Shown one piece after another: positions 11,984 through 32,270 of a stretch of 64,000 nucleotides of DNA; position 1 is the stretch's first letter, and every line of letters begins with the position of its first letter. Source of the DNA: a virus; the IMG/VR virus record IMGVR_UViG_3300028840_006907, positions 64,001-128,000 of that record; one strand, given 5' to 3'. Position numbers and translations under genes: made by a program. The notes below the pieces were generated by a model, which had not been told where the DNA came from, made no database searches, and worked only from the letters and a program-made list of their open reading frames with translations.

Positions 11984-12025
11984 TCTAGGAATGTAAAGTA
12001 TTAGAGGATTATTAAGGGGAGGGAA

Positions 12026-15018
12026 ACCCCGCTCAGATGCAGGGAAGAAGATTTCATTAAGAAGTTTTAGGAAGAGCCCCGCAGAGGAGGAACCTCGCAA
12101 GATGCGGGGAAAAGGAACTTCAGGCAATTGGCTGGGATTAGCCCCGCGAAGGTGCGGGGAAAACAGTTTCCATGAACTATATTAGGGAGAGCCCCGTTGA
12201 CACGGGGAAAAACCCGTCTTTACTTAGTGAGATCGAGGAAGGAACAGCCCCGTTGATACGGGGATAAAATAATATGACTTTTACGAATCCTCTAGGGACA
12301 GCCCTGCAGAGTGCAGGGAAAAGTAACGTCTGGGAATTGTTTAGGATTAGCCCCGCGAAGGTGCGGGGAAAGCCATAGATTTTATATTGACACAGGAAAA
12401 ACCCCGGTATAGTCCGGGGAAAAGTACGTAATCAAGATGTAAGAGGATTAGACCCGGCGAGTCCGGGAAAAGATTGGCCCAATCACTATTAAGTAGGGTG
12501 GGATAGCCCCGCAGAATGCAGGGAATAGATGCCTCACTTCATACCACTGCGTCAACCCCAGTAGAGTCCGGGGAACATGAGTGTAAATCTCTGTCGTAGG
12601 TTCAACCCCGGAGAGATCCAGGGGAAATGGGTACAACTTTGTGTACAAGGGGTAGCCCCGGAGAAATCCGAGGAAAATGAGTGTAAATCTGTGTTGAGGG
12701 TCCAGCCCCGCTCAGTGCAGGGAATATTAAGGGTCAAAACCGGTTGCCCCTGCGTCAACCCCGGTGAAGTCCGGGGAACATGAGTGTAAATCTCTGTGGT
12801 AGGATCAACCCCGCAGAGTGCAGGGAAAAATTGAACTTTTTAATCAACCCTGTAACAGCCCCGGAGTCAGTTTTGACAAGTCCGGGGGAATATCACTTCG
12901 TAAAGGAGTGGCTGTCAAGGGGGCAACCCCACAGAGATGTGGGGGAAAGTAAGCCAACGTTCCGGCATAGGCATAGCCCCTGAATTTACAGAGGGCAATT
13001 TTTCCAGTGTCCAGAAGAAGATGCAGGGAGAACCCCGGAAAGTCCAGGGGAAAATGTGTCACAGAACAACTCTTTGTGATCTCCAGGGTGAACCTCGCAG
13101 AGGTGCGGGGGAAAAGTGTCAATGAATACCAGTATGAGTCAGCCCCGGTATAGCCCGGGAATAATTACTTCTAGTCTGATAGAAGGTGCAACCCCGGGAA
13201 GTCCGGGGAAATCGGTCATAGCCATCTGGACCAGGAAGAACCCCGGTGAGATCCGGGGAAAAGGACGTTTAAATCCTGACATAGTAGCTAACTGAGGCGT
13301 AGCTCCGGTCGGGTCAGCCCTGCAGAGAGCAGGGAACAAACATAGGTAATAAATCGGCACGTGACAGCCCCGCAGAGAGGCGGGGATATATAGCGTGAGT
13401 TGCAGGGTAAGGTTCAACCCTTGTTTACCAAGGGAAAAATACCGGCAGATAAGAATTTAGGATGACCCCCGGTGAAAGTCCGGGGAAAATAATTAATACG
13501 CAAAACAGCAGGGCCAGTCCCGCGAGATGCAGGGAATGTTCAGCCAGTTTGTGTAATATTTCAGGAGACGGTGGTGCAACCCTGTCAAGGACAGGGATAT
13601 GCAACATCTGTGGCTCTACGAGGATCAGCCCCGGCAAGTCCGGGGAATTATCTTTTTATAAATGCCAAAAATAACAGTTGGGAGGGGCCAATTCCGCTGA
13701 TGCAGAAAGACATTTCATAATTAATATATTTATGGAAGAGCCCCGGTGAAATCCGGGGAAGTCAAGTAATTACAGCTCGCTGACCACTGGGGGTAGCCCC
13801 GGTAAGATCCGGGGAAAAGTTTGTTTTGAAACAAACGCTAGGAACAGCCCCGCTCAGGTGCGGGAGAATCACTGCATATTTGGTTAATGGCCCCCCTGAG
13901 TCAATCCCGCTCAGGTGCGGGGAAAATAAAGAGATAGACTAATTCAATATGCAGGAAGAACCCCGCTATATGCAGGAAAATTTAAAAAGTATGGATATCT
14001 CCTTGAGTCAACCCCGGAGATCCAGGGAAATGTAGGCACTCGTTGTCCTTTGTCGAAGTGTGAAGGGCAAACCTCGTTGATACGAGGAACAAATTTAGTT
14101 TTACTTTTGAATAAAAGTGGTCAAGCCCCGCTCAGGTGCAGGGAATAGATAAGTATACCGACGATAGCCAGGACAGCACCTGTGGTTTAGCCCTGCATGT
14201 GCAGGGAATAGTTGAGTTGAAGATTGAAGAAAAAGATAAAGTAGGGTCAGCTCTGCATGTGCAGAGAATAGCCTTTCTTCAAGCGTTGACTTGGGAGTAG
14301 GTGGGGATCAGCCCTGCACATGCAGGGAATAGAATGGTGAATCAAATTCCATTTTGTCAAAGAACGGCGACAGCCCTGCCAGTGCAGGGAATATGATTTT
14401 AACGATGGTAAAATTGGGAAGGGGTCAGCCCTGCACATGCAGGGAATAGTCGCTAGTTCAAATCCAATCGCCCCGACAGGATCAGCCCTGCATACGCAGG
14501 GAATAGAAAATACTGACGATAAACTAGCGATATGGGATCAGCCCTGCATACGCAGGGATATAGCTTGACGAATGGCCGTTTTAATGCCAGGAGTAACCCC
14601 GCTGCGAGGAATAGTCATTTCAAATATATAGGTAAAGCCCCGCGAAAGAGCGGGGGTATAATATGGCGGATTTTGTTCTATTGGTGGAATCCGGGCCATC
14701 CCCGTAGATTGACACGGGGAGATCTTTTAGAAATCTACCAAGGTGCCTTTCCGGAGTCATCCCCGTATATACGGGGGAGATTTCAATTCAGGGAATTTCG
14801 GTACAAAATTGGTCGGTTTATCCCCGTATACACGGGGAATATTGTTTCAATAGGGCATAGCAGATCTAGGATCGGGGAATCCCCGCAGGGGCGGGGAACA
14901 TCTCGGATTTATTAATCAAATTCAAACGTTTTTCGGGGAATCCCCGCAGGGGCGGGGAACATTGTTTTAAGAGGTGGTAGTTACCTCGTAGGGGAATCCC
15001 CGCAGGGGCGGGGAACAT
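12026..15018 (-). CRISPR. CRISPR array 1 with highly heterogeneous I-E-like repeats (~55 units)
   Basis: Three identical leader-proximal repeats, GGGGAATCCCCGCAGGGGCGGGGAACAT, start at 14874, 14935 and 14991. Read on the minus strand they are ATGTTCCCCGCCCCTGCGGGGATTCCCC, close to the type I-E consensus GTGTTCCCCGCGCCAGCGGGGATAAACCG. Hairpin units then continue every 49-62 bp down to ~12026. Confidence 0.9.
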
Positions 15019-15057
15019 ACTAAGTCATAATGCCATTCAAATCAAAGGTTTATAGGA

Positions 15058-15112
15058 ACCCTAATTTTCTACCAAAGAAAAATGTACTTGTCATGTATAA
15101 ATGTCAAAGAGC
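15058..15112 (-). promoter_or_regulatory. CRISPR leader, array 1
   Basis: accctaattttctaccaaa..gtacttg.c.t.tataaatgtcaaagagc is nearly identical to 22626-22677. The minus-strand reading contains TTGACA (15102-15107). Confidence 0.7.
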
Positions 15113-15127
15113 GTCAGAGAGAAATCC

Positions 15128-17359
15128 CTAGTGGATATACCGAATCCATTCATATCGAATTTTCATCGTTTTATAAGGAGCTTTTTTTCTCCCTGGAAAT
15201 ATGTTTCCTTCAAAAAGGAAAAATTTTTGAACAATTTTAAATTCAGCGTTTGATGGTGTCAAGCTCTGTGGTGCATAATCCGAACGCCAGTAATTATTAC
15301 AATATATAAATTTTTCTTCTCTGTCTTTTTGTATAAGGCCCGGAAACACCACTAAAACTATCTTTTCGTTTTCAATAACAATATCCCCTTGATAAATAGC
15401 TATTTCTAAATCCAGACCATCCTGCTCTATCACACGAGCATATTTCGAGAGTTTCCCATCAATCTTTACTTTAGCTTTAGGGGGAATATCAAAAGTTATC
15501 CATTCACCTTTTATGTCCTTAATGCTTTGAATAGGTTTTTTAACTGGAATTTCTTGAAAGACATGATCTTGGTATTCTGCTTTTTTAAGGATTTCTCCAT
15601 CTTTTTCCATATTAAGCAATAAAGCCTTTTCCATGATGTCTTTAAGTTCATAGAGATCTTTTTCAGTTAAGGGCTCTTTTGTTCCGAATACGATGGAACC
15701 TACATTCTCTAATCGAGCGATTTTATCAAAACCCTGTTTCCGGACAAAGTCTATGGTAATATGTTCTATTTTTCTATTTCTTGAAAGTCTTATGATTCTT
15801 ACAAATTCAGTTTTAATTGTGTCTTTGAAATTATCAAAACTTAAATGATCTTCTACGTAGGGATGATACAAATCCGCTATAAGACTTAATAAAATTTCTA
15901 TGTCTTCAGGTTTATCCTGTTTACGGTTGTAATCATAAGCTTTAATAATTTCTTGTCTCATTTCCATTAATATATCAGGAGCCATTATTTCACTTAAACT
16001 GGTAGATCCTTTTTTGTCCCGATAAAAGGGAGCTGTTGGAAGTAAGGGAATCCTGATAGCAGCACAAAGTTCTGACATTACAATTGAGGTTAAGAACAAA
16101 TTCAATCTGTCTGAATATAATGCCCTGATATTATTACGTTCTTCTTTTTTAATAGGTGGAACATAAATGTATAACCATATTTTATCTTTTTTAGGGTAAC
16201 ATCTGAAAATACGAAACATTATTTGAGAGAAGGTCACCTGACTCTTTCCATAACTTGTATTATGTAAAACAGCAGCAGGAGGCCAATCATACCCTTCATA
16301 GAATATTCTGCAAGATACGGCGACCCAGTATTTTTTATGATTACGTCTCAATAACTCTCTATTTTTTTTCTGAGTTTCCGGTGTGACTAAATCCAGTACT
16401 TTGGACGCAGGATATATTTCGTGAATAGCTTTTAAATATTTTTTAAGGGTTCCTTCCTCTCTGAACCGGTTCCCCATGTCAGGTAATATGACAATGTGTC
16501 TTTGATCTTTGTGCTCTTTCATATATCTAATGATCTGAGTAAGGGGATCTTTCCTATAGTGAGTGAAACGGAAATTGAATTCTTTGATTTTTATGATTGA
16601 GAGATAGTCATTTAATGGGATAACCCATTTTTCAAAATGATGTTTATAAGCATTGGGGACTATTTCTCCTCTGTCTGTGCGGTGGTAAGTAGCTGTATAA
16701 AAATTTACGTTACAAGTAGGTTCATGGATGGTACATACATCTCTGACAAAATCACCCAAATGAGTGGAATCTAGTGGGGTTGATTTTGAATGATGGCATT
16801 CATCTACATGTACAGTTAAATTTCTAAGGGCTTTCTTTTTTTCATAGTTGGTTAATTTTTCCCAGGTCATGACAAACCCTCTATGGGTAGCTGTAGCAAT
16901 AGGGCCTGTTATATGTTTTTCATTGTACGGGTATTTTCGAGGATCTGCTAAAAGGAATTCTTTAAGTCCTTTAATGGATTGAGGGTTTTCACTATTGAAT
17001 TTATGTTCTTTTGGTACTTCCCACAATCTTACCATACCTTTATATTTGATTTTTATTTGTCTATTTTGGGATCTGCAGAAATTTTCACCTATTTCTATTG
17101 TTGGTGCGATAAAGATATGTTTTCGAGTATTTTTAGATATTATGATTTCATCCAGGGATATGCATACTGCTAAAAAAGTTTTGCCGACTCCCCCTGGTGC
17201 ATCAAAGATCATGTATCTGAATTTTTTCCCATATTCTTTTGCATTGCATTGCCAGCCAGAGGGTATCATGATCCCTGATTCAAGTTTTTTATTATAGGTA
17301 CCAAGGTCAACCGGTTCTATTTTAATAGATTGCTGGAAAAGCGGTAATAGCTTTTTCAT
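15128..17359 (-). CDS. SF2 DExH helicase, Cas3'-like position, no HD nuclease domain
   Basis: Motif I APGGVGKT, motif II DECHH, motif III TAT, motif VI-like QIMFRIFR. Only ~55 aa precede the Walker A, so there is no room for an HD domain. Last gene of the cas operon. Confidence 0.75.
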   Translation of the reverse strand: MKKLLPLFQQSIKIEPVDLGTYNKKLESGIMIPSGWQCNAKEYGKKFRYMIFDAPGGVGKTFLAVCISLDEIIISKNTRKHIFIAPTIEIGENFCRSQNRQIKIKYKGMVRLWEVPKEHKFNSENPQSIKGLKEFLLADPRKYPYNEKHITGPIATATHRGFVMTWEKLTNYEKKKALRNLTVHVDECHHSKSTPLDSTHLGDFVRDVCTIHEPTCNVNFYTATYHRTDRGEIVPNAYKHHFEKWVIPLNDYLSIIKIKEFNFRFTHYRKDPLTQIIRYMKEHKDQRHIVILPDMGNRFREEGTLKKYLKAIHEIYPASKVLDLVTPETQKKNRELLRRNHKKYWVAVSCRIFYEGYDWPPAAVLHNTSYGKSQVTFSQIMFRIFRCYPKKDKIWLYIYVPPIKKEERNNIRALYSDRLNLFLTSIVMSELCAAIRIPLLPTAPFYRDKKGSTSLSEIMAPDILMEMRQEIIKAYDYNRKQDKPEDIEILLSLIADLYHPYVEDHLSFDNFKDTIKTEFVRIIRLSRNRKIEHITIDFVRKQGFDKIARLENVGSIVFGTKEPLTEKDLYELKDIMEKALLLNMEKDGEILKKAEYQDHVFQEIPVKKPIQSIKDIKGEWITFDIPPKAKVKIDGKLSKYARVIEQDGLDLEIAIYQGDIVIENEKIVLVVFPGLIQKDREEKFIYCNNYWRSDYAPQSLTPSNAEFKIVQKFFLFEGNIFPGRKKAPYKTMKIRYEWIRYIH

Positions 17360-17628: not shown

Positions 17629-18273
17629 TTAATAAGATTTATACGGTGCAATAAGCATCATACCACATCCGAAACCTTTACTCTTACCAATTCCATTATA
17701 AATAGTATTCACAAAAAGATTTTTATTGACTACCTGAAGGACTCCTCGTAAATCAATACTGAAAAAAGATACAACTTTACCATCTTTTTTTTTGAATTTA
17801 CAGAATTGAAAAGATTGAACGGAATGCTTTTGAATCATATTTTTAAAACCGTAACTTTGGCCACGTTTCTGAAGCCAATTCTTTGAGGATTCGTGAGCAA
17901 TGAAATTCCAATTATAGGGTTCATCAAGAACTTTCATTTCATTTGCCAGATCCGTCATGATTGAAACCTTTTTCCTGGTTTTCAATTTACAAACTTCGGC
18001 ATTGAGTCTGAGATCGTATTGAAGAAATATTCCAGATTTTAAATTATTTAAATCGAATACTTTTGTTTGTGTAGTGTATTCGTCCTCTGGAGGATTTGGT
18101 TTCTTTTTTGATATGATATAAAGTTCACCATTATAGAGATAATAAAGGAAATCTCTTACCCTGTTAGATCTTTGATCACCAAAAAATTCCCAGACTTTTT
18201 GATGAAGCTCATATATACCTTCGGTGGGAGAATATCTTCTCAAGCTGTCACTGTAAATTTTACTCAGAAACAT
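17629..18273 (-). CDS. cas6e: Cas6e (CasE) crRNA endoribonuclease
   Basis: MFLSKIY...YELHQKVWEFF...RDFLY and C-terminal GIGKSKGFGCGMMLIAP parallel E. coli CasE (MYLSKV...LHQGLW...GIGPAKSMGCGLLSLAP). AGGAGG lies 6 nt upstream of the ATG at 18273. Confidence 0.85.
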   Translation of the reverse strand: MFLSKIYSDSLRRYSPTEGIYELHQKVWEFFGDQRSNRVRDFLYYLYNGELYIISKKKPNPPEDEYTTQTKVFDLNNLKSGIFLQYDLRLNAEVCKLKTRKKVSIMTDLANEMKVLDEPYNWNFIAHESSKNWLQKRGQSYGFKNMIQKHSVQSFQFCKFKKKDGKVVSFFSIDLRGVLQVVNKNLFVNTIYNGIGKSKGFGCGMMLIAPYKSY

Positions 18274-18910
18274 TCGATACCTCCTTCCATCCCATATACT
18301 CAATTCGGGATCGGTATTGTTTGGGACCGGTTACCTGATCAAAACGTTGATTGCTTTTTACTATTTTGATACTGGTATCGGTACCTTCCCAAAATATTCG
18401 GTTCTTTTCACGCCCTTTAAGACTACCATTAAGAAATTCAGGAAGAGAGTACTGTTCAAACGCCTCTGAGAGGCTCTCAGCCTTAACGATCTTAGGATCG
18501 GGTGGTATGTCATAGGAACAGCATTTCCTTCCAAGAAAGGGGGTATAGATGGGCCTATTAAGGGCTTCCATTATTTTCTTCAAAGTATAGGGACAGTTTT
18601 CATTCTCCCATATACATACGGTAAAGATGGCATTGACTAGGTAAAATCTATTCGAGACAATTCCTGGTCCGACTCTGACAATATGGAAATCTTTTAGAAT
18701 AGTACCAGGATTATCTTCCCTACAGGCAAATCCTAGTTGGGCAATCTGAGTTAATTCTTTCACCATTTCTCTTGAGACTCCAAGAGAAGCAGCGATTAAC
18801 CCGCTTACGCCAGATTTGGTAGGGTGATCATCTGTCTTTCGGGTATTACCCTGAAGGGGGAGACCCCAGGCGGATAGAGTACCCGAAAGAAGGAATAATA
18901 AATAATTCAT
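18260..18910 (-). CDS. cas5e: Cas5e (CasD)
   Basis: MNYLLFLLSGTLSAWGLP...TRKT..HPTKSGVSGLIAASLGVSRE parallels the Cas5e N-terminus (LRLAGPMQAWG...PTRSGLLGLLGACLGI). Confidence 0.85.
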   Translation of the reverse strand: MNYLLFLLSGTLSAWGLPLQGNTRKTDDHPTKSGVSGLIAASLGVSREMVKELTQIAQLGFACREDNPGTILKDFHIVRVGPGIVSNRFYLVNAIFTVCIWENENCPYTLKKIMEALNRPIYTPFLGRKCCSYDIPPDPKIVKAESLSEAFEQYSLPEFLNGSLKGREKNRIFWEGTDTSIKIVKSNQRFDQVTGPKQYRSRIEYMGWKEVSNVSE

Positions 18911-18933: not shown

Positions 18934-20019
18934 TTAGAAATCGATGAATTTAATAAGTTCGTTAAGTGATCCTTCTTTTGTGAGTACATTCAAGATCCTA
19001 TAATCCATTTCATGGTAACATGAATCAAAACTACTTTTCATGTCAAGAAGGGCTTTGACAGCATTTTCCATAACCGCAGGACCTTTAATAGGAGTATGGA
19101 AGGCTTGACAGAGACTTCGTGGGGCAGTTGGAGCTTTTTCGATCATAACGAATGCTGGCCATGTTTGACTATCAGCACATCTGTTTTTATTAGCTGAGGG
19201 GGATGAAGTGGTTAATACTTCGACTATCTGTCGGATGGTTTTGATAGCTAGTTCTTTATTACCTTGAAGATTTTTCGTTAAGAGCTTGGAATTGATTACA
19301 AAGAAACTATAATAGACACCCTGGGTAAAATAGAAATTATCTAGGTGACCTGAACCTTTGGTTCCTTCTAATCCAAGGTTATCGGTAGCTGTAAAATAGT
19401 CGGTTTGGACAGATCCTATATCATTGACAGTAAAAGCGAAATTTGAGGACAGTGAAGCTTCAACATCATATTGGGGCAGTTTTGCAATCATGCGACCGGT
19501 AAGGGCTGTTCTGATTCCTGTATTTTCTTTTAAAAAGAAGAATTCTTGATCAGTGGGTTTATGCCCCTCAATAATTTTGTCAATCAGTTCTTCAATATGT
19601 TGTCTTTCGCTCGGTTGAATTTTAATGGTTTCGGTTTTAAGAAGATCAACCTTTTTTTTCTTTTTCTTTGTATTTTTATCATCTTCTTTTTCAGTGTGCT
19701 TTTTGATATCAACAAAAGTACCAATAAATTTAAATGCGTATTCTTCAGCTTTTTTAGGTGATATTCCACCATCAATTAATCTTTTCTCGACATATTTTCC
19801 AATAAGAGGAGTCTGAAGACCTATATCGATTTCGCACCTTTCAAATAGAGCCTTGTTTAAATCATATTTTCGATTTTGTGAAGACGAATAACCTCGGTTG
19901 GTATCATTAAGTTTCATTGTTTTAGGACGTCCGTCCTGGCCTCGGTTTATGCTAGATACAGCTACACCAGTGAGAAGGTGAATTAACCAGTAGGGGTCTT
20001 TAATAATAGTTTTAGACAT
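18934..20019 (-). CDS. cas7e: Cas7e (CasC/Cse4) backbone subunit
   Basis: LIHLLTGVAVSSINRGQDGRPKT...RGYSSSQNRKYDLNKAL parallels CasC (HVLISHSPSCLNRDD...RISSQSLKRAMR). 361 aa, like CasC. Confidence 0.85.
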   Translation of the reverse strand: MSKTIIKDPYWLIHLLTGVAVSSINRGQDGRPKTMKLNDTNRGYSSSQNRKYDLNKALFERCEIDIGLQTPLIGKYVEKRLIDGGISPKKAEEYAFKFIGTFVDIKKHTEKEDDKNTKKKKKKVDLLKTETIKIQPSERQHIEELIDKIIEGHKPTDQEFFFLKENTGIRTALTGRMIAKLPQYDVEASLSSNFAFTVNDIGSVQTDYFTATDNLGLEGTKGSGHLDNFYFTQGVYYSFFVINSKLLTKNLQGNKELAIKTIRQIVEVLTTSSPSANKNRCADSQTWPAFVMIEKAPTAPRSLCQAFHTPIKGPAVMENAVKALLDMKSSFDSCYHEMDYRILNVLTKEGSLNELIKFIDF

Positions 20020-20045: not shown

Positions 20046-21989
20046 TTATATGTTATTTGAATATTCTCTTTCCCAGTAGAACTTGACATCTTTGCTCCAG
20101 TGGGCATACCCTTCCATGAAACTGATGATGTTAAATCCTTCCATTCGAGAAACAACATCAGCAAATACTTTCCAGTTTTTTTGTATATCCGTTTTATTGA
20201 AACTCATCATTTCGTCAACATGTCGGCGGTTAATTTTTTGAGAACCCATTTGGGCACCGAAAGATTGAGAAAAATCCAGATCCTTAGCTTTAAAAACAAT
20301 TAGTAGAAGAGGTACGAAAAGAGTCTTCATATCTTCTGATCTTAAAGCAGGGAAATGCATAGACATTTCTAAAATAAAATTCAAATAAAGGTCTTCATGT
20401 TTTAAGATATCGATGTCAAAACATCGGGTAAATACCCTATGTTTTTCTGTATTTCTAATAGTCCCGTACCAGGACAGGAATGGTTTGGTAAAGACCTGGT
20501 TAAAATGAGGTAGGTTTAATTTCCTGTATTCGATATGGGCGAAATTCTCATATTCTAATGGTTGTAGTTTAAGAGGTTTAACAACTTTTTTATTTAAGGT
20601 TTCGATAAATTGTTCCTTAAAATATTTCTGTAAACCTCTCTTTTCAGTACCTACATTTTTTTCAAATGTATCGAAAGCTTTAACTACCATCTTTTCCAAC
20701 CATTTTTCGATATTATGATTCTTGAGAACTTCATAGAAGTATTCTTCAGTTTCTGTCAGAAATTCGTGAAATATTAAAGGTTCGGTTTTATCAGTTCCCC
20801 AGAACTTTCTTATATAATTACAGGTATACCATCCTATAAGATATGAGTGTTCTCTGATATTTAAAGTAAACGCACTATCTTTATAGAGTTCTTCTGGGAT
20901 ATCGAATTTATTTTCCTCCCATCCAAAGAGTTTGGCTTTAGCCATATTATAACCGAAAGTCCATAATCCGAAATCAGTTATTCCAAGATATTCTCGGTTC
21001 TCCATGAAATGACTCACCACTAAAGCTGGAGTTAATTTTTTAGCTGGTAGTAGATAGGTCACAAGATCGAGATGGCTGGTAAAGTCCAGGGGTTTCCGGA
21101 AACCTGTTTCTTTGCCTTTTATAATGGGTGAAAGGATATGACGTGGTTTGACATAACAGTTACCATAATTCCTCGTTTTTATCTTTCTAACCATTAATTT
21201 GGAATGATTGCCACAGATAGTACATGATTCATCAAATTTATCAAAGATAAGATGAATACGTAGAGGCATTTCCCAGAGCGGGTAATAAGGATTCATCTCA
21301 TCCAGGGAAACAGTAGCTTTGTTTTTACTATCAACGGTATCACTAAGCCATGGGAGTGTTACACCTTTTGGATTTCCTCCGAATTCAAACATGGTCTTTT
21401 TAATAATAACATTAGACCATATTGTTTCCCATAACGTGGAACCGGTAATAATAGTGGTAAGAGAACCATTGGCACCGGCTGTTATCGAAGTACGGTATCC
21501 TTGGCCTCCCATAATGGCACTGAGTTGATTAAGATAAAGGGCAATTGTAGCACAGGATTGGCAAAAAGTATGTATCTTTGCTTTTTGGAAGAAATCTTTA
21601 CCAGCTTTAATTGTCGCTGTCCCTGGAGTATCAAAGAGGAGATTACCAACATTTACGATTCTTTCAAGGTCCTGTGGCCGTTTATCCTGTAAAAAACGAG
21701 GACCTTTGCCATCTAGTTCAAAGAGTTTTGGTTTAAGTTTTTCTAGGATGGCTTTTTGGTTTGGTGCTTTTTTGAATAGTTTTTTCCATTCTTTCTTACT
21801 TGTAGGAGCAAGATAAGTGTTGAAAAAACCTATGAGAAGCCGTACACCTACAGCATTGAAATCGGGTCTACCGAAATCGAGAGCTATTATAGGGTTATTA
21901 GGTTTTGAAGTTATTTTGTAGGGTGGAATGTTTTCCCTGGTACCGTCTTTTCGGATGACGGGGATCCAAGGGTCCTTAATTACATTCAT
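20046..21989 (-). CDS. cas8e: Cas8e (Cse1) large subunit with fused Cas11/Cse2-like C-terminal domain
   Basis: N-terminus MNVIKDPWIPV and CQSCATIALYLNQ...GGQGYR parallel Cse1 (NWIPV; CGGCTAIALFNQ...GGGFK). The C-terminal ~170 aa (SFGAQMGSQKINRRHVDEMM...HWSKDVKFYWEREY) parallels Cse2 (SLGRALANSGRINERRIFQLI...WWGKRERQQLLEDF). There is no separate cas11 gene. Confidence 0.8.
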   Translation of the reverse strand: MNVIKDPWIPVIRKDGTRENIPPYKITSKPNNPIIALDFGRPDFNAVGVRLLIGFFNTYLAPTSKKEWKKLFKKAPNQKAILEKLKPKLFELDGKGPRFLQDKRPQDLERIVNVGNLLFDTPGTATIKAGKDFFQKAKIHTFCQSCATIALYLNQLSAIMGGQGYRTSITAGANGSLTTIITGSTLWETIWSNVIIKKTMFEFGGNPKGVTLPWLSDTVDSKNKATVSLDEMNPYYPLWEMPLRIHLIFDKFDESCTICGNHSKLMVRKIKTRNYGNCYVKPRHILSPIIKGKETGFRKPLDFTSHLDLVTYLLPAKKLTPALVVSHFMENREYLGITDFGLWTFGYNMAKAKLFGWEENKFDIPEELYKDSAFTLNIREHSYLIGWYTCNYIRKFWGTDKTEPLIFHEFLTETEEYFYEVLKNHNIEKWLEKMVVKAFDTFEKNVGTEKRGLQKYFKEQFIETLNKKVVKPLKLQPLEYENFAHIEYRKLNLPHFNQVFTKPFLSWYGTIRNTEKHRVFTRCFDIDILKHEDLYLNFILEMSMHFPALRSEDMKTLFVPLLLIVFKAKDLDFSQSFGAQMGSQKINRRHVDEMMSFNKTDIQKNWKVFADVVSRMEGFNIISFMEGYAHWSKDVKFYWEREYSNNI

Positions 21990-22149: not shown

Positions 22150-22210
22150 CATTTTTTCAAGTACTTTATATATAACTATAATATTTCGAATTGTTTATAG
22201 CATGAGAAAT

Positions 22211-22236
22211 ATTTCCTCCGTTTACACGGAGGAAAT
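22211..22236. promoter_or_regulatory. perfect 10-bp inverted repeat between array 2 and the cas promoter
   Basis: atttcctccg tttaca cggaggaaat. Could terminate the array-2 transcript or act as an operator. Confidence 0.45.
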
Positions 22237-22266
22237 TTAGGATTATATCAGAGATGGGCTCTGAGA

Positions 22267-22586
22267 CAGCCCCGGTAAAGTCCAGGGAAATAAAAATTAG
22301 TGATAATTCGGGAATCAGCAGGAGGAGAGCATCAGCCCTGCGTATGCGGGGAATAGTGTTATCGTCTTACAGGATGTAAAGCAGAGACAGCCCCGCGTAT
22401 GCGGGGAATAGAAATTAATACATCTCATAAAATCTAGCATCAGCCCCGCGTATGCGGGGAATAGTTATTTATCTATACTTCCTACAACTCCCATAACGCA
22501 TCAGCCCCGCGTATGCGGGGAATAGCTCGTTGGTTTTCCCATTCCACAAAAGTTCAACGCATCAGCCCCGCGTATGCGGGGAATAG
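22267..22586 (-). CRISPR. CRISPR array 2 (6 repeats)
   Basis: GCATCAGCCCCGCGTATGCGGGGAATAG occurs at 22437, 22498 and 22559, with variants at 22329 and 22384 and a divergent unit at 22267. The two leader-proximal spacers are 33 nt. Minus-strand reading is CTATTCCCCGCATACGCGGGGCTGATGC. Confidence 0.9.
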
Positions 22587-22625
22587 ACTATAATATAATT
22601 AGTTGAAAATCAGAGAGTTACAAAG

Positions 22626-22677
22626 ACCCTAATTTTCTACCAAAAAAAGTACTTGCCGTTTATAAATGTCAAAGAGC
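22626..22677 (-). promoter_or_regulatory. CRISPR leader, array 2
   Basis: Near-identical copy of 15058-15112, including TTGACA on the minus strand (22667-22672). Confidence 0.7.
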
Positions 22678-22683
22678 TTATCT

Positions 22684-22857
22684 TTAAAGGTATAAATCCT
22701 CTTCATCCTCAGGAGCCAGATCTATATCTGAAAGAGTTCTGCTCCCACCGAAATCTAATTCTAATACTTCATCTTCTCCACCTGTATTAAAAAAATCATC
22801 TTCTTCACTTGGCTCTTTAAGAATCTCATCAGCATCGTATTCTTCGATTGGTAACAT
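22684..22857 (-). CDS. highly acidic 57-aa protein
   Basis: MLPIEEYDADEILKEPSEEDDFFNTGGEDEVLELDF...EDEEDLYL, hand-translated. Ends 7 nt before the array-2 leader. Confidence 0.45.
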   Translation of the reverse strand: MLPIEEYDADEILKEPSEEDDFFNTGGEDEVLELDFGGSRTLSDIDLAPEDEEDLYL

Positions 22858-31316: not shown

Positions 31317-32270
31317 TTATTCCTTAAAATAAAATTTAGATTTTAAATTATCGTAAGCACTCCAATTACCTTCAATAATACGATTAGTATATATAGTACT
31401 TAGATTGTATTCAGAGTCGATTATATCAGCTTTAGATAAAAGTATAGCTTCAGGAGTCATCGGGACTACTGCAGCCCCTAAATCCAGAGAACCGTGATGA
31501 CTTAATATTAAATGACCTAATATTTTTTTCATTCGGTTTCTTTCTTCCGGAGGAGCTTCTAATGCGTTTATGATTGGTATAATATTAGTATAACTTAAAT
31601 TGAGATGACTATGCAATCGTCCTATATCAGTCATTTCAATAGTCAAGTCATATGTATAGGAAAACATTTTTCCGTGATCATGAAGAAAAGCTCCCATGCA
31701 AATGATAGAAGGATCTATTGGATAAATATAACAGAAAGAGGAACAGATCTTCGTTACACATAAAGTATGCTCTAATAGACCGTGTAGATAAGCGTGATGG
31801 ACGTTACCCTTTCCTCCAGGGCACATTTTAAATTTATGCACAAATGTTTCATTATTTTTAAATTTATCCCAGAGATCTCTCATATATTTATTTTTAACTT
31901 TATCATCCATTATTTGAACTAGTTCAACCCACATTTCATCGGGATCATGTGGTGAAGTAGGAAGGAAATCTACAGGATTATAAGGATTTGTTTCTTCAAT
32001 TGAAGATACAATGATTTGATTCTGACCTTGATATACATTAACTTTCCCTTGAATACGACAAACTTTAGCATTTTTAACTATTTCGTAATAAGTATCTGCA
32101 TGATTGAAAGCGGTTGCTGCTATCTGTCCTTTTTTATCTCTCAACTCAAAAGTTAGAAAATTACCTTTTGAAGCGTTTTTGAATGGTCTTAGTGAAGCGT
32201 CTGCTATAACGAAGATTCCATCTATATCTGTTCCACTACTCAATGTTAATATATCTGCTGTGTTTACCAT
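31317..32270 (-). CDS. YhaM-like OB-fold plus HD-domain 3'-5' exoribonuclease
   Basis: N-terminal OB-fold-like region, then HHAYLHGLLEHT and FLHDHGK HD motifs. 317 aa. Confidence 0.6.
   Translation of the reverse strand: MVNTADILTLSSGTDIDGIFVIADASLRPFKNASKGNFLTFELRDKKGQIAATAFNHADTYYEIVKNAKVCRIQGKVNVYQGQNQIIVSSIEETNPYNPVDFLPTSPHDPDEMWVELVQIMDDKVKNKYMRDLWDKFKNNETFVHKFKMCPGGKGNVHHAYLHGLLEHTLCVTKICSSFCYIYPIDPSIICMGAFLHDHGKMFSYTYDLTIEMTDIGRLHSHLNLSYTNIIPIINALEAPPEERNRMKKILGHLILSHHGSLDLGAAVVPMTPEAILLSKADIIDSEYNLSTIYTNRIIEGNWSAYDNLKSKFYFKE

Follow-up and report, generated by a model that had tools for sequence, protein, structure and literature searches.

A type I-E Cas8e protein with a Cas11 (Cse2) domain fused to its C-terminus in IMG/VR record IMGVR_UViG_3300028840_006907

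How is a type I-E CRISPR effector complex supplied with its small subunit when its operon holds no separate gene for one? Type I-E is the reference Cascade, in which, by the textbooks, Cse2 has its own gene and is present as two free copies, and the canonical complexes of Escherichia coli, Thermobifida fusca and Streptococcus thermophilus contain one Cse1, two Cse2, six Cas7, one Cas5 and one Cas6e. The question is raised by positions 64,001 to 128,000 of IMG/VR virus record IMGVR_UViG_3300028840_006907, a stretch of 64,000 nucleotides (nt) hereafter called the window, whose cas8e (cse1) gene is an open reading frame (ORF) for 647 amino acids (aa) at 20046..21989 on the minus strand, stop codon counted in the span. 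An earlier note made from the sequence alone had proposed that Cas11 (Cse2) is fused to the C-terminus of this Cas8e. Transitive homology, profile–profile comparison and fold all uphold that proposal, and the protein is almost certainly a true Cas8e–Cas11 fusion, with which the complex would be a rare variant within type I-E.

The N-terminal part of the protein is recognized as Cse1 by Pfam PF09481 (E 4.6e-48, residues 2-375, 164.9 bits against a cut-off of 24.7), TIGR02547 (E 1.6e-33, 116.4 bits against a cut-off of 70) and the PADLOC Cas8e model (E 3.9e-55). These family models reach only residues 1 to ~380 of the 647. The first four genes of the operon encode type I-E Cas8e, Cas7e, Cas5e and Cas6e; their matches in Pfam, NCBIfam and PADLOC have E-values between 1e-26 and 1e-55, and none of these libraries returned a Cse2 call on any of the four proteins. 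The absence of a separate small-subunit gene between cas8e and cas7e, already remarked in the earlier note, was confirmed: 26 nt without an ORF separate the cas8e stop from the cas7e start. The Cas11 domain thus has the place of cse2 in I-E operons, between cse1 and cas7e, while being read in the frame of cse1.

The last ~150 residues of the protein are a Cse2/Cas11e domain (residues 498-647, 150 residues; 20049..20498, minus strand). The interval to which the earlier note had assigned Cas11, 20049-20550 (residues 481-647), takes in this whole domain and the C-terminal 17 residues of the linker before it (481-497). Its homology to Cse2 was reached transitively. A whole-protein search returned five full-length relatives with 27-57% identity, and a profile built from the C-termini of six fused homologues (profile A2) was searched against 1.84 billion representative protein sequences (1.84e9). 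It retrieved 15 proteins in total, mostly further fused proteins of 600-660 aa, and among them three free-standing proteins of 181-189 aa (library-wide E 3.9e-7, 2.6e-5 and 7e-4), all bona fide Cse2 by Pfam (PF09485, 60-70 bits). One fused homologue, P0102, itself exceeds the PF09485 cut-off (25.1 bits against 24.6).

Profile–profile comparison, which the earlier note had suggested as a check, gave significant results. With hhalign, 13 fused C-termini matched a Cse2 alignment at 98.5% probability (E 2e-15, 136 columns). Because that alignment included proteins retrieved by the profile itself, a second Cse2 set was gathered independently, in which the cse2 genes found beside the Cse1 of the closest unfused relatives are joined by E. 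coli CasB and by the domain of a bacterial fusion protein, P0082, that Pfam recognises; against this set, which the query had not selected, the fused family scored 97.1% (E 4.9e-11). The hhalign probability was 93% when only the six closest sequences were used. The family profile gave no significant match to E. coli Cse2 alone (1.3%, in another register) or to the single P0082 Cse2 domain, so that real Cse2 alignments are needed. The by-eye alignment with E. coli Cse2 in the earlier note fared accordingly: as a pairwise match it is not significant, but its three segment pairs (FLSWYGTIRN/LYRAWQQLDN, SFGAQMGSQKINRRHVDEMM/SLGRALANSGRINERRIFQLI and HWSKDVKFYWEREY/WWGKRERQQLLEDF) stand in register with the significant profile–profile alignments.

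Structure prediction points the same way. The model of the isolated C-terminal domain has a predicted local distance difference test score (pLDDT) of 87.3 and the all-alpha fold of Cse2, and its first 22 Foldseek matches are all Cse2 chains. Comparison of its net charge and isoelectric point with those of Cse2 was uninformative.

The Cse1 part is complete without this domain. A full-length AlphaFold model from a 70-sequence alignment (pLDDT 92.8, predicted template modelling score 0.80), read together with Foldseek, displays the two-domain architecture of Cse1: a globular, PAM-reading N-terminal domain (residues 1-363; 20901..21989, minus strand) and a C-terminal four-helix bundle (residues 372-470; 20580..20876, minus strand) with helices at 372-397, 404-413/415-424 (one arm, broken at residue 414), 427-446 and 451-470. 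The top 19 matches of the full-length model in the Protein Data Bank (PDB) are all Cse1/CasA, with Cse2 chains following as separate matches; E. coli Cse1 aligned over 480-494 residues with a target-normalised template modelling score of 0.79, and the alignment to whole Cse1 chains takes in bundle helices 372-470. In homologues, the Pfam Cse1 profile extends to position 420-430 of 450. Because the Cse1 part carries its own complete four-helix bundle, the Cas11 domain is an addition and not a misread Cse1 C-terminus. As modelled, the protein is thus Cse1 plus Cse2 and not Cse1 with a long tail; the ORF length of 647 aa, which the earlier note had equated with Cse1 and Cse2 combined, is confirmed and approximates the sum of the E. 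coli proteins (502 + 160 residues).

The two parts are joined by a tether of 27 residues (471-497; 20499..20579, minus strand). It holds the sole low-confidence stretch of the model, with pLDDT <50 at 486-490 and an average of 59 over the block 481-490. From the invariant N466 at the end of the bundle to the invariant W507 in the first Cas11 helix there are 40-44 residues in six homologues of 27-57% identity, and this conserved spacing suggests that tether length is under constraint.

The Cas8e–Cas11 fusion is real and old. Six contigs, drawn from JGI, Logan and ENA samples and the longest two measuring 388 and 470 kb, encode an identical 647-aa protein, and at least 12 divergent relatives from metagenomes (P0002-5, P0008, P0100-102, P0105, P0107, P0108 and P0111) share the fusion architecture, with domain identities of 13-57%. 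The same operon, likewise without cse2, was found in the loci L003, L004, L009 and L010, whose fusion proteins are 36-57% identical to that of the window; the contig of P0008 (L005, 27% identity) ends 114 residues into the gene downstream of the fusion and tells no more than that the fusion gene is directly adjoined by the next ORF. A full-length alignment scan found no relatives in IMG/VR, and in a phage collection megablast gave no match and tblastn ordinary Salmonella Cse1 only. In the closest unfused relatives, P0016 and P0006, the loci are canonical, with cse1 and cse2 either abutting or sharing 4 nt, and little would have to change at their junction for the two frames to be joined; the fusion would have arisen from such a canonical cse1–cse2 pair.

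Does the locus also produce a free Cas11? The whole window was scanned by hmmsearch, filters off, over its 574 stop-to-stop ORFs (minimum length 40 aa) with two profile hidden Markov models, one from the fused domains and one from the Cse2 set. Only the fusion ORF matched; no second Cse2-like ORF, and hence none of the separate cas11 genes that the earlier note had said would count against its proposal, was found in the 64-kb window. Within the fusion ORF, the note had seen no in-frame Met at the domain boundary, and there is indeed no ATG, GTG or TTG between codons 435 and 541, tether included. An in-frame ATG does occur at codon 434; internal initiation at this M434 was rejected, since the codon sits within the third Cse1 bundle helix, lacks a Shine–Dalgarno motif and is not conserved. 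The single Shine–Dalgarno-like motif near the boundary precedes ATC-462. The five genes of the operon all start with ATG 6-9 nt after GGAGG, AAGGAG, CAGGAG or GAGAGGAAA; for cas8e–cas11 itself, GGAGG lies 6 nt 5' of the ATG.

Conservation tells the same story. No Met at the domain boundary is conserved across 13 family members, and the boundary ATGs of P0005 (M473/M481) are preceded by a poorly spaced AAGGA 13-15 nt upstream. A conserved internal ribosome-binding site with a start codon at the large/small boundary, the mark of a nested cas11, is found neither in the ORF nor in the family. By the criterion that McBride et al. applied to I-F1/I-G (10.1101/2020.04.18.045682), the lack of an internal start at the sequence level argues against a nested cas11. 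The caveat in the earlier note that a fusion alters subunit stoichiometry was apt: no internal start was found, and none is conserved.

The remaining genes of the operon follow on the minus strand in the order cas7e, cas5e, cas6e and a helicase. The cas7e gene (361 aa, 18934..20019, minus strand; PF09344 E 1.1e-52, PADLOC Cas7e E 2.5e-53) starts with ATG behind AAGGAG, and is followed by cas5e (216 aa, 18260..18910, minus strand; TIGR01868 E 1.7e-35, PF09704 E 1e-26) and cas6e (17629..18273, minus strand; TIGR01907 E 3.9e-34). The start of cas6e is probably the ATG at 18273, which is preceded by the Shine–Dalgarno motif GGAAGGAGG and gives a 214-aa product also called in public annotations; the TTG at 18303 from the mechanical ORF list is less likely. 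From this ATG, cas6e overlaps the end of cas5e by 14 nt. These three genes and an array of 29-nt hairpin repeats make up the further type I-E components of the locus.

The place of cas3 is taken by a superfamily 2 (SF2) helicase of 743 aa (15128..17359, minus strand) that has no HD domain. It matches PF04851 ResIII (E 8.9e-07) and DEAD (E 1e-4) weakly and PHROG 16 DNA helicase (E 3e-8), scores 13.8 bits against the Cas3 core model (cut-off 102) and has no sequence relative in the PDB. The helicase is kept after cas6e in L003 and L004 (745 aa) and is absent in L010. No signature cas3, which combines an HD nuclease with a helicase, and no Cas1 was found among window ORFs of at least 280 aa, and no cas1–cas2 module adjoins the operon, be it that of the window or those at L001-L004, L009 and L010; for small ORFs of the window, the negative on Cas2 extends only to those beside the operon. 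About 9 kb upstream of the cas operon, at 31317-32270 on the minus strand, lies a gene for a 317-aa protein with an OB-fold and an HD domain (PF01336 + PF01966). It is syntenic in L009 (870-1823) and at the edge of L001 and is the only HD protein near the Cas3-less system; it may be just a YhaM-like nuclease.

The window (1-64000) has a G+C content of 35% and is packed with small ORFs without assigned function. It also encodes radical-SAM, sulfotransferase, nucleotide-sugar and amidase genes, together with a 1514-aa ORF without a family match. It forms part of a 388-470 kb contig of a JGI metagenome (Ga0180437_10000019), and this large, low-GC element is probably a huge phage; no phage structural genes were identified in the window.

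Two arrays flank the operon. Array 1, upstream of cas8e (22328..22586, minus strand), has five 29-nt repeats (CTATTCCCCGCATACGCGGGGCTGATGCG) with spacers of 32, 32, 24 and 26 nt, the last two being the short ones. After the regular repeats, its tail holds two degenerate hairpin repeats (22210-22330, minus strand) whose stems are altered yet paired (CCCTGG...CCGGGG and CCTCCG...CGGAGG). Downstream of the helicase, the CRISPR-like array 2 (12020..15019, minus strand) comprises at least 52 Cas6e-type hairpin repeats over ~3 kb. Its stems are nearly all different (CCCCGC/GCGGGG, CCCTGC/GCAGGG, CCCCGG/CCGGGG, CCCCGT/ACGGGG, CCTCG/CGAGG, CCCTT/AAGGG and others), and the hairpin is kept by compensatory changes. 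Units of array 2 measure 56-62 nt near the leader and 48-54 nt distally, and some spacers are duplicated; 25 of the 51 unit lengths are 48-54 nt, which corresponds to spacers of ~20-22 nt. Array 1 has units of 61 nt, and so do L003, with twelve regular ones, and array 2 in its leader-proximal part. In L003, L009 and L010, variable-hairpin units of ~50 nt lie around the regular 61-nt cores or replace them.

The leaders of both arrays (15020-15128 and 22590-22690, minus strand) are homologous (ctctttgacatttata...caagtac...ggtagaaaattaggg...) and carry a TTGACA-like box, so that the arrays would be transcribed separately and co-directionally with the cas genes. Neither an Rfam match on the arrays nor a spacer target elsewhere in the window was found. 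Several mechanical ORFs inside array 2 (14532-14915, plus strand, and others within 12577-13674) read through the repeats and are almost certainly not genes; one of them, of 127 aa, has nevertheless been entered as a gene in a public Logan annotation (L002 7610-7993).

Taken together, these data are probably best explained by a fused I-E Cas8e–Cas11 with one tethered Cas11 per complex, and on balance we favour this tethered copy as the only one used. The tethered Cas11 would fold back along the Cas7 backbone into the Cse2 belly position beside the Cas8e four-helix bundle, so that the minor filament would consist of that bundle and one Cas11 at a fixed ratio of 1:1, not 1:2, with no free Cas11 made. 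So placed, it would go on holding the non-target strand and stabilising the R-loop. Since the operon has an SF2 helicase and no cas3, cas1 or cas2, stable binding is the most likely mode of action of the complex, possibly with the helicase being recruited, and for this a shortened minor filament should suffice. Known cases set a precedent that fewer Cas11 copies can work: in I-F1, the Cas11-like C-terminal bundle of Cas8f is covalent, with no free Cas11 and no conserved internal start (10.1101/2020.04.18.045682; PMC10161043); Cas11 is dispensable for silencing and plasmid interference by E. coli I-E (PMC12235044); and the Csy complex of phage ICP1 has no Cas11-like domain at all (PMC10161043).

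Several observations weigh against this explanation. The main difficulty lies in the 61-nt array units. In the Cascades of E. coli and S. thermophilus, two Cse2 are bound on units of this length (PMC6859484), so one belly position would stay empty unless a second copy came from elsewhere. The window protein falls under every Cse2 family threshold when searched directly, and its homology is established by transitive, profile and fold evidence: PF09485 matched neither the whole protein nor the isolated C-terminus in Pfam even at E up to 10, phmmer and hmmsearch of PDB sequences with the protein or family profiles found no Cse2, and the direct searches of the C-terminus in both collections gave chance matches alone, such as DUF6913 and GpsB. 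The motifs E..R.F and LRR, invariant in the small Cse2 alignments used, are not conserved in the fused family, which makes the DNA-contacting function of its Cas11 domain an assumption. Finally, translation may begin at a non-canonical codon, the linker may be cut by proteolysis, or a cas11 gene may lie on the contig beyond the 64-kb window.

A rival reading is a nested gene of the kind documented in I-B, I-C and I-D, in which the fusion ORF would also yield free Cas11 by internal initiation and the tethered copy would nucleate a filament of two Cas11, as has been proposed for a fused copy (10.1101/2020.04.18.045682; PMC11899642). The crRNA (CRISPR RNA) units of that length in array 1 and L003 would canonically need two Cse2 (PMC6859484), and possible starts can be pointed to in the ATG at codon 434 and in the near-boundary Met of P0005, P0101 and P0105. 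We nevertheless consider a nested gene improbable: codons 435-541 hold no start codon, M434 lies in a bundle helix without a Shine–Dalgarno motif while the one such motif precedes ATC-462, every start in the operon itself pairs a strong Shine–Dalgarno motif with ATG, and the boundary Met is not conserved across the 13 members, with the AAGGA of P0005 ill-spaced. A free Cas11 might instead come from a post-translational cut in the linker, which would release one untethered Cas11 per Cas8e and leave the ratio at 1:1. This is more doubtful still. The linker does hold the single low-confidence segment of the model, and a C-terminal fragment of Cas8b was once ascribed to proteolysis (10.1101/2020.04.18.045682); that case, however, proved to be internal translation. 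No protease or cleavage motif was identified here, and the conserved length and the partly conserved F-x-H-I/L-E-Y-x-K-x-x-L-P-H/Y-F motif with its invariant K490 fit a structural tether better than a disposable spacer.

A different extension takes the single Cas11 at face value and matches it to the guides. Engineered E. coli and S. thermophilus Cascade with guides of the -12-nt class loses two Cas7 and one Cse2, leaving four Cas7 and one Cse2 (PMC6859484). The ~20-22-nt spacers of array 2 belong to this class and would need exactly one Cas11. It is conceivable, if unlikely, that the covalent 1:1 Cas8e–Cas11 is matched to unusually short guides in a miniaturised, Cas3-less and probably phage-borne I-E Cascade (Cas8e–Cas11 : 4 Cas7 : Cas5 : Cas6e), fed by arrays of differing repeats with a compensated Cas6e hairpin and acting with the SF2 helicase or by binding alone. 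The idea that short spacers account for a single Cas11 in general is weakened by the twelve 61-nt units of L003 and by the 32-nt spacers with which array 1 starts. The reading that there is no genuine fusion at all, either because an error in sequencing or assembly or a recent frameshift made the ORF an artefact or pseudogene or because its C-terminus is an extended helical tail of Cse1, is effectively refuted. Direct Pfam and PDB sequence searches do leave the C-terminus unlabelled, and where cse1 and cse2 overlap by 4 nt or abut, as in the relatives, a one-base error could fuse them. Against this stand the same protein on six contigs from independent samples, the persistence of the fusion, with tether length conserved, in 12 or more homologues whose identity falls to 13-27%, and a Cse1 four-helix bundle that is complete before the extra domain begins.

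Compared with canonical I-E systems, the locus is alike in that I-E family models recognise Cas8e, Cas7e, Cas5e and Cas6e in the same gene order, in its 29-nt repeat with a Cas6e-type hairpin, in some 32-nt spacers and in the Cse2 fold of its Cas11 domain. It differs in that Cse2 is the C-terminal domain of Cas8e, presumably with one copy per complex instead of two, and in having an HD-less SF2 helicase after cas6e and no cas3, cas1 or cas2 among ORFs of at least 280 aa. Fusions of large and small subunits are familiar from type I systems (PMC3150331, PMC5965380). A parallel would be I-F1 Cas8f (Csy1), which shares the covalent small-subunit function, the absence of a cas11 gene and of a conserved internal start, and a short minor filament (10.1101/2020.04.18.045682; PMC10161043). 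Cas8f is, however, unrelated in sequence to Cse1 (PMC3150331), whereas the window domain is a recognisable Cse2 homologue tethered after Cse1's own four-helix bundle. The nested cas11 of I-B, I-C and I-D, by contrast, has a conserved internal ribosome-binding site with ATG and yields several free Cas11 copies, and such a site is neither present nor conserved in the window family; on this comparison, the tethered Cas11 seems to resemble the fused bundle of I-F1 Cas8f rather than the internally translated Cas11 of those subtypes. With type IV-A, the likeness is one of system context only, namely a Cascade-like complex without a nuclease or adaptation module, a helicase and a mobile element (PMC11519345; 10.1101/2023.06.23.546257). 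Type IV-A uses CasDinG, whereas the window subunits are all of I-E family and the helicase is not DinG (weak ResIII/DEAD matches, no PDB relative).

A second group of fusions was met among bacterial proteins. P0082, P0112 and P0121, three of the 120 closest clusters, are Cse1–Cse2 fusions of 670-674 aa from high-G+C sequences, and both PF09481 and PF09485 are matched in each. Their placement among ordinary Cse1 proteins of 495 aa, with up to 81% identity, gives their fusion an origin separate from that of the window family. In the P0082 locus (L008, 9001-13487), a 674-aa fusion with a linker of ~110 aa precedes cas7e, cas5e, cas6e and the gene for a 519-aa protein without a Pfam match; IS605/TnpB genes and a resolvase flank the fusion, and no cas3, cas1 or cas2 was found within 9 kb of it. 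Both groups carry the two domains in one protein with cas7e next and, at L008 as in the window, no cas3, cas1 or cas2 nearby. They differ in the linker, ~110 residues against 27 in the window protein, and in the chromosome-like context with IS605/TnpB elements of the P0082-type fusions.

In the searchable literature we found no description of a natural Cse1–Cse2 fusion, and for I-E only a separate cse2 is described, which does not prove that none exists; the natural I-E fusions found are Cas3–Cse1 in Streptomyces only, and subunit fusions are otherwise cases from I-B, I-C, I-D and I-F. The present families indicate that the I-E lineage also took the route of large–small subunit fusion, at least twice independently, and that the window family did so without the internal start that restores stoichiometry in I-B, I-C and I-D. 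The fusion family thereby opens the questions of how many Cas11 copies an I-E backbone needs, whether a tethered copy nucleates the minor filament or replaces it, and what role a Cas3-less, probably phage-encoded Cascade with only a helicase plays. With one gene fewer and a fixed subunit ratio, such a fusion would also ease heterologous expression of I-E Cascade for tools of the CRISPR interference type.

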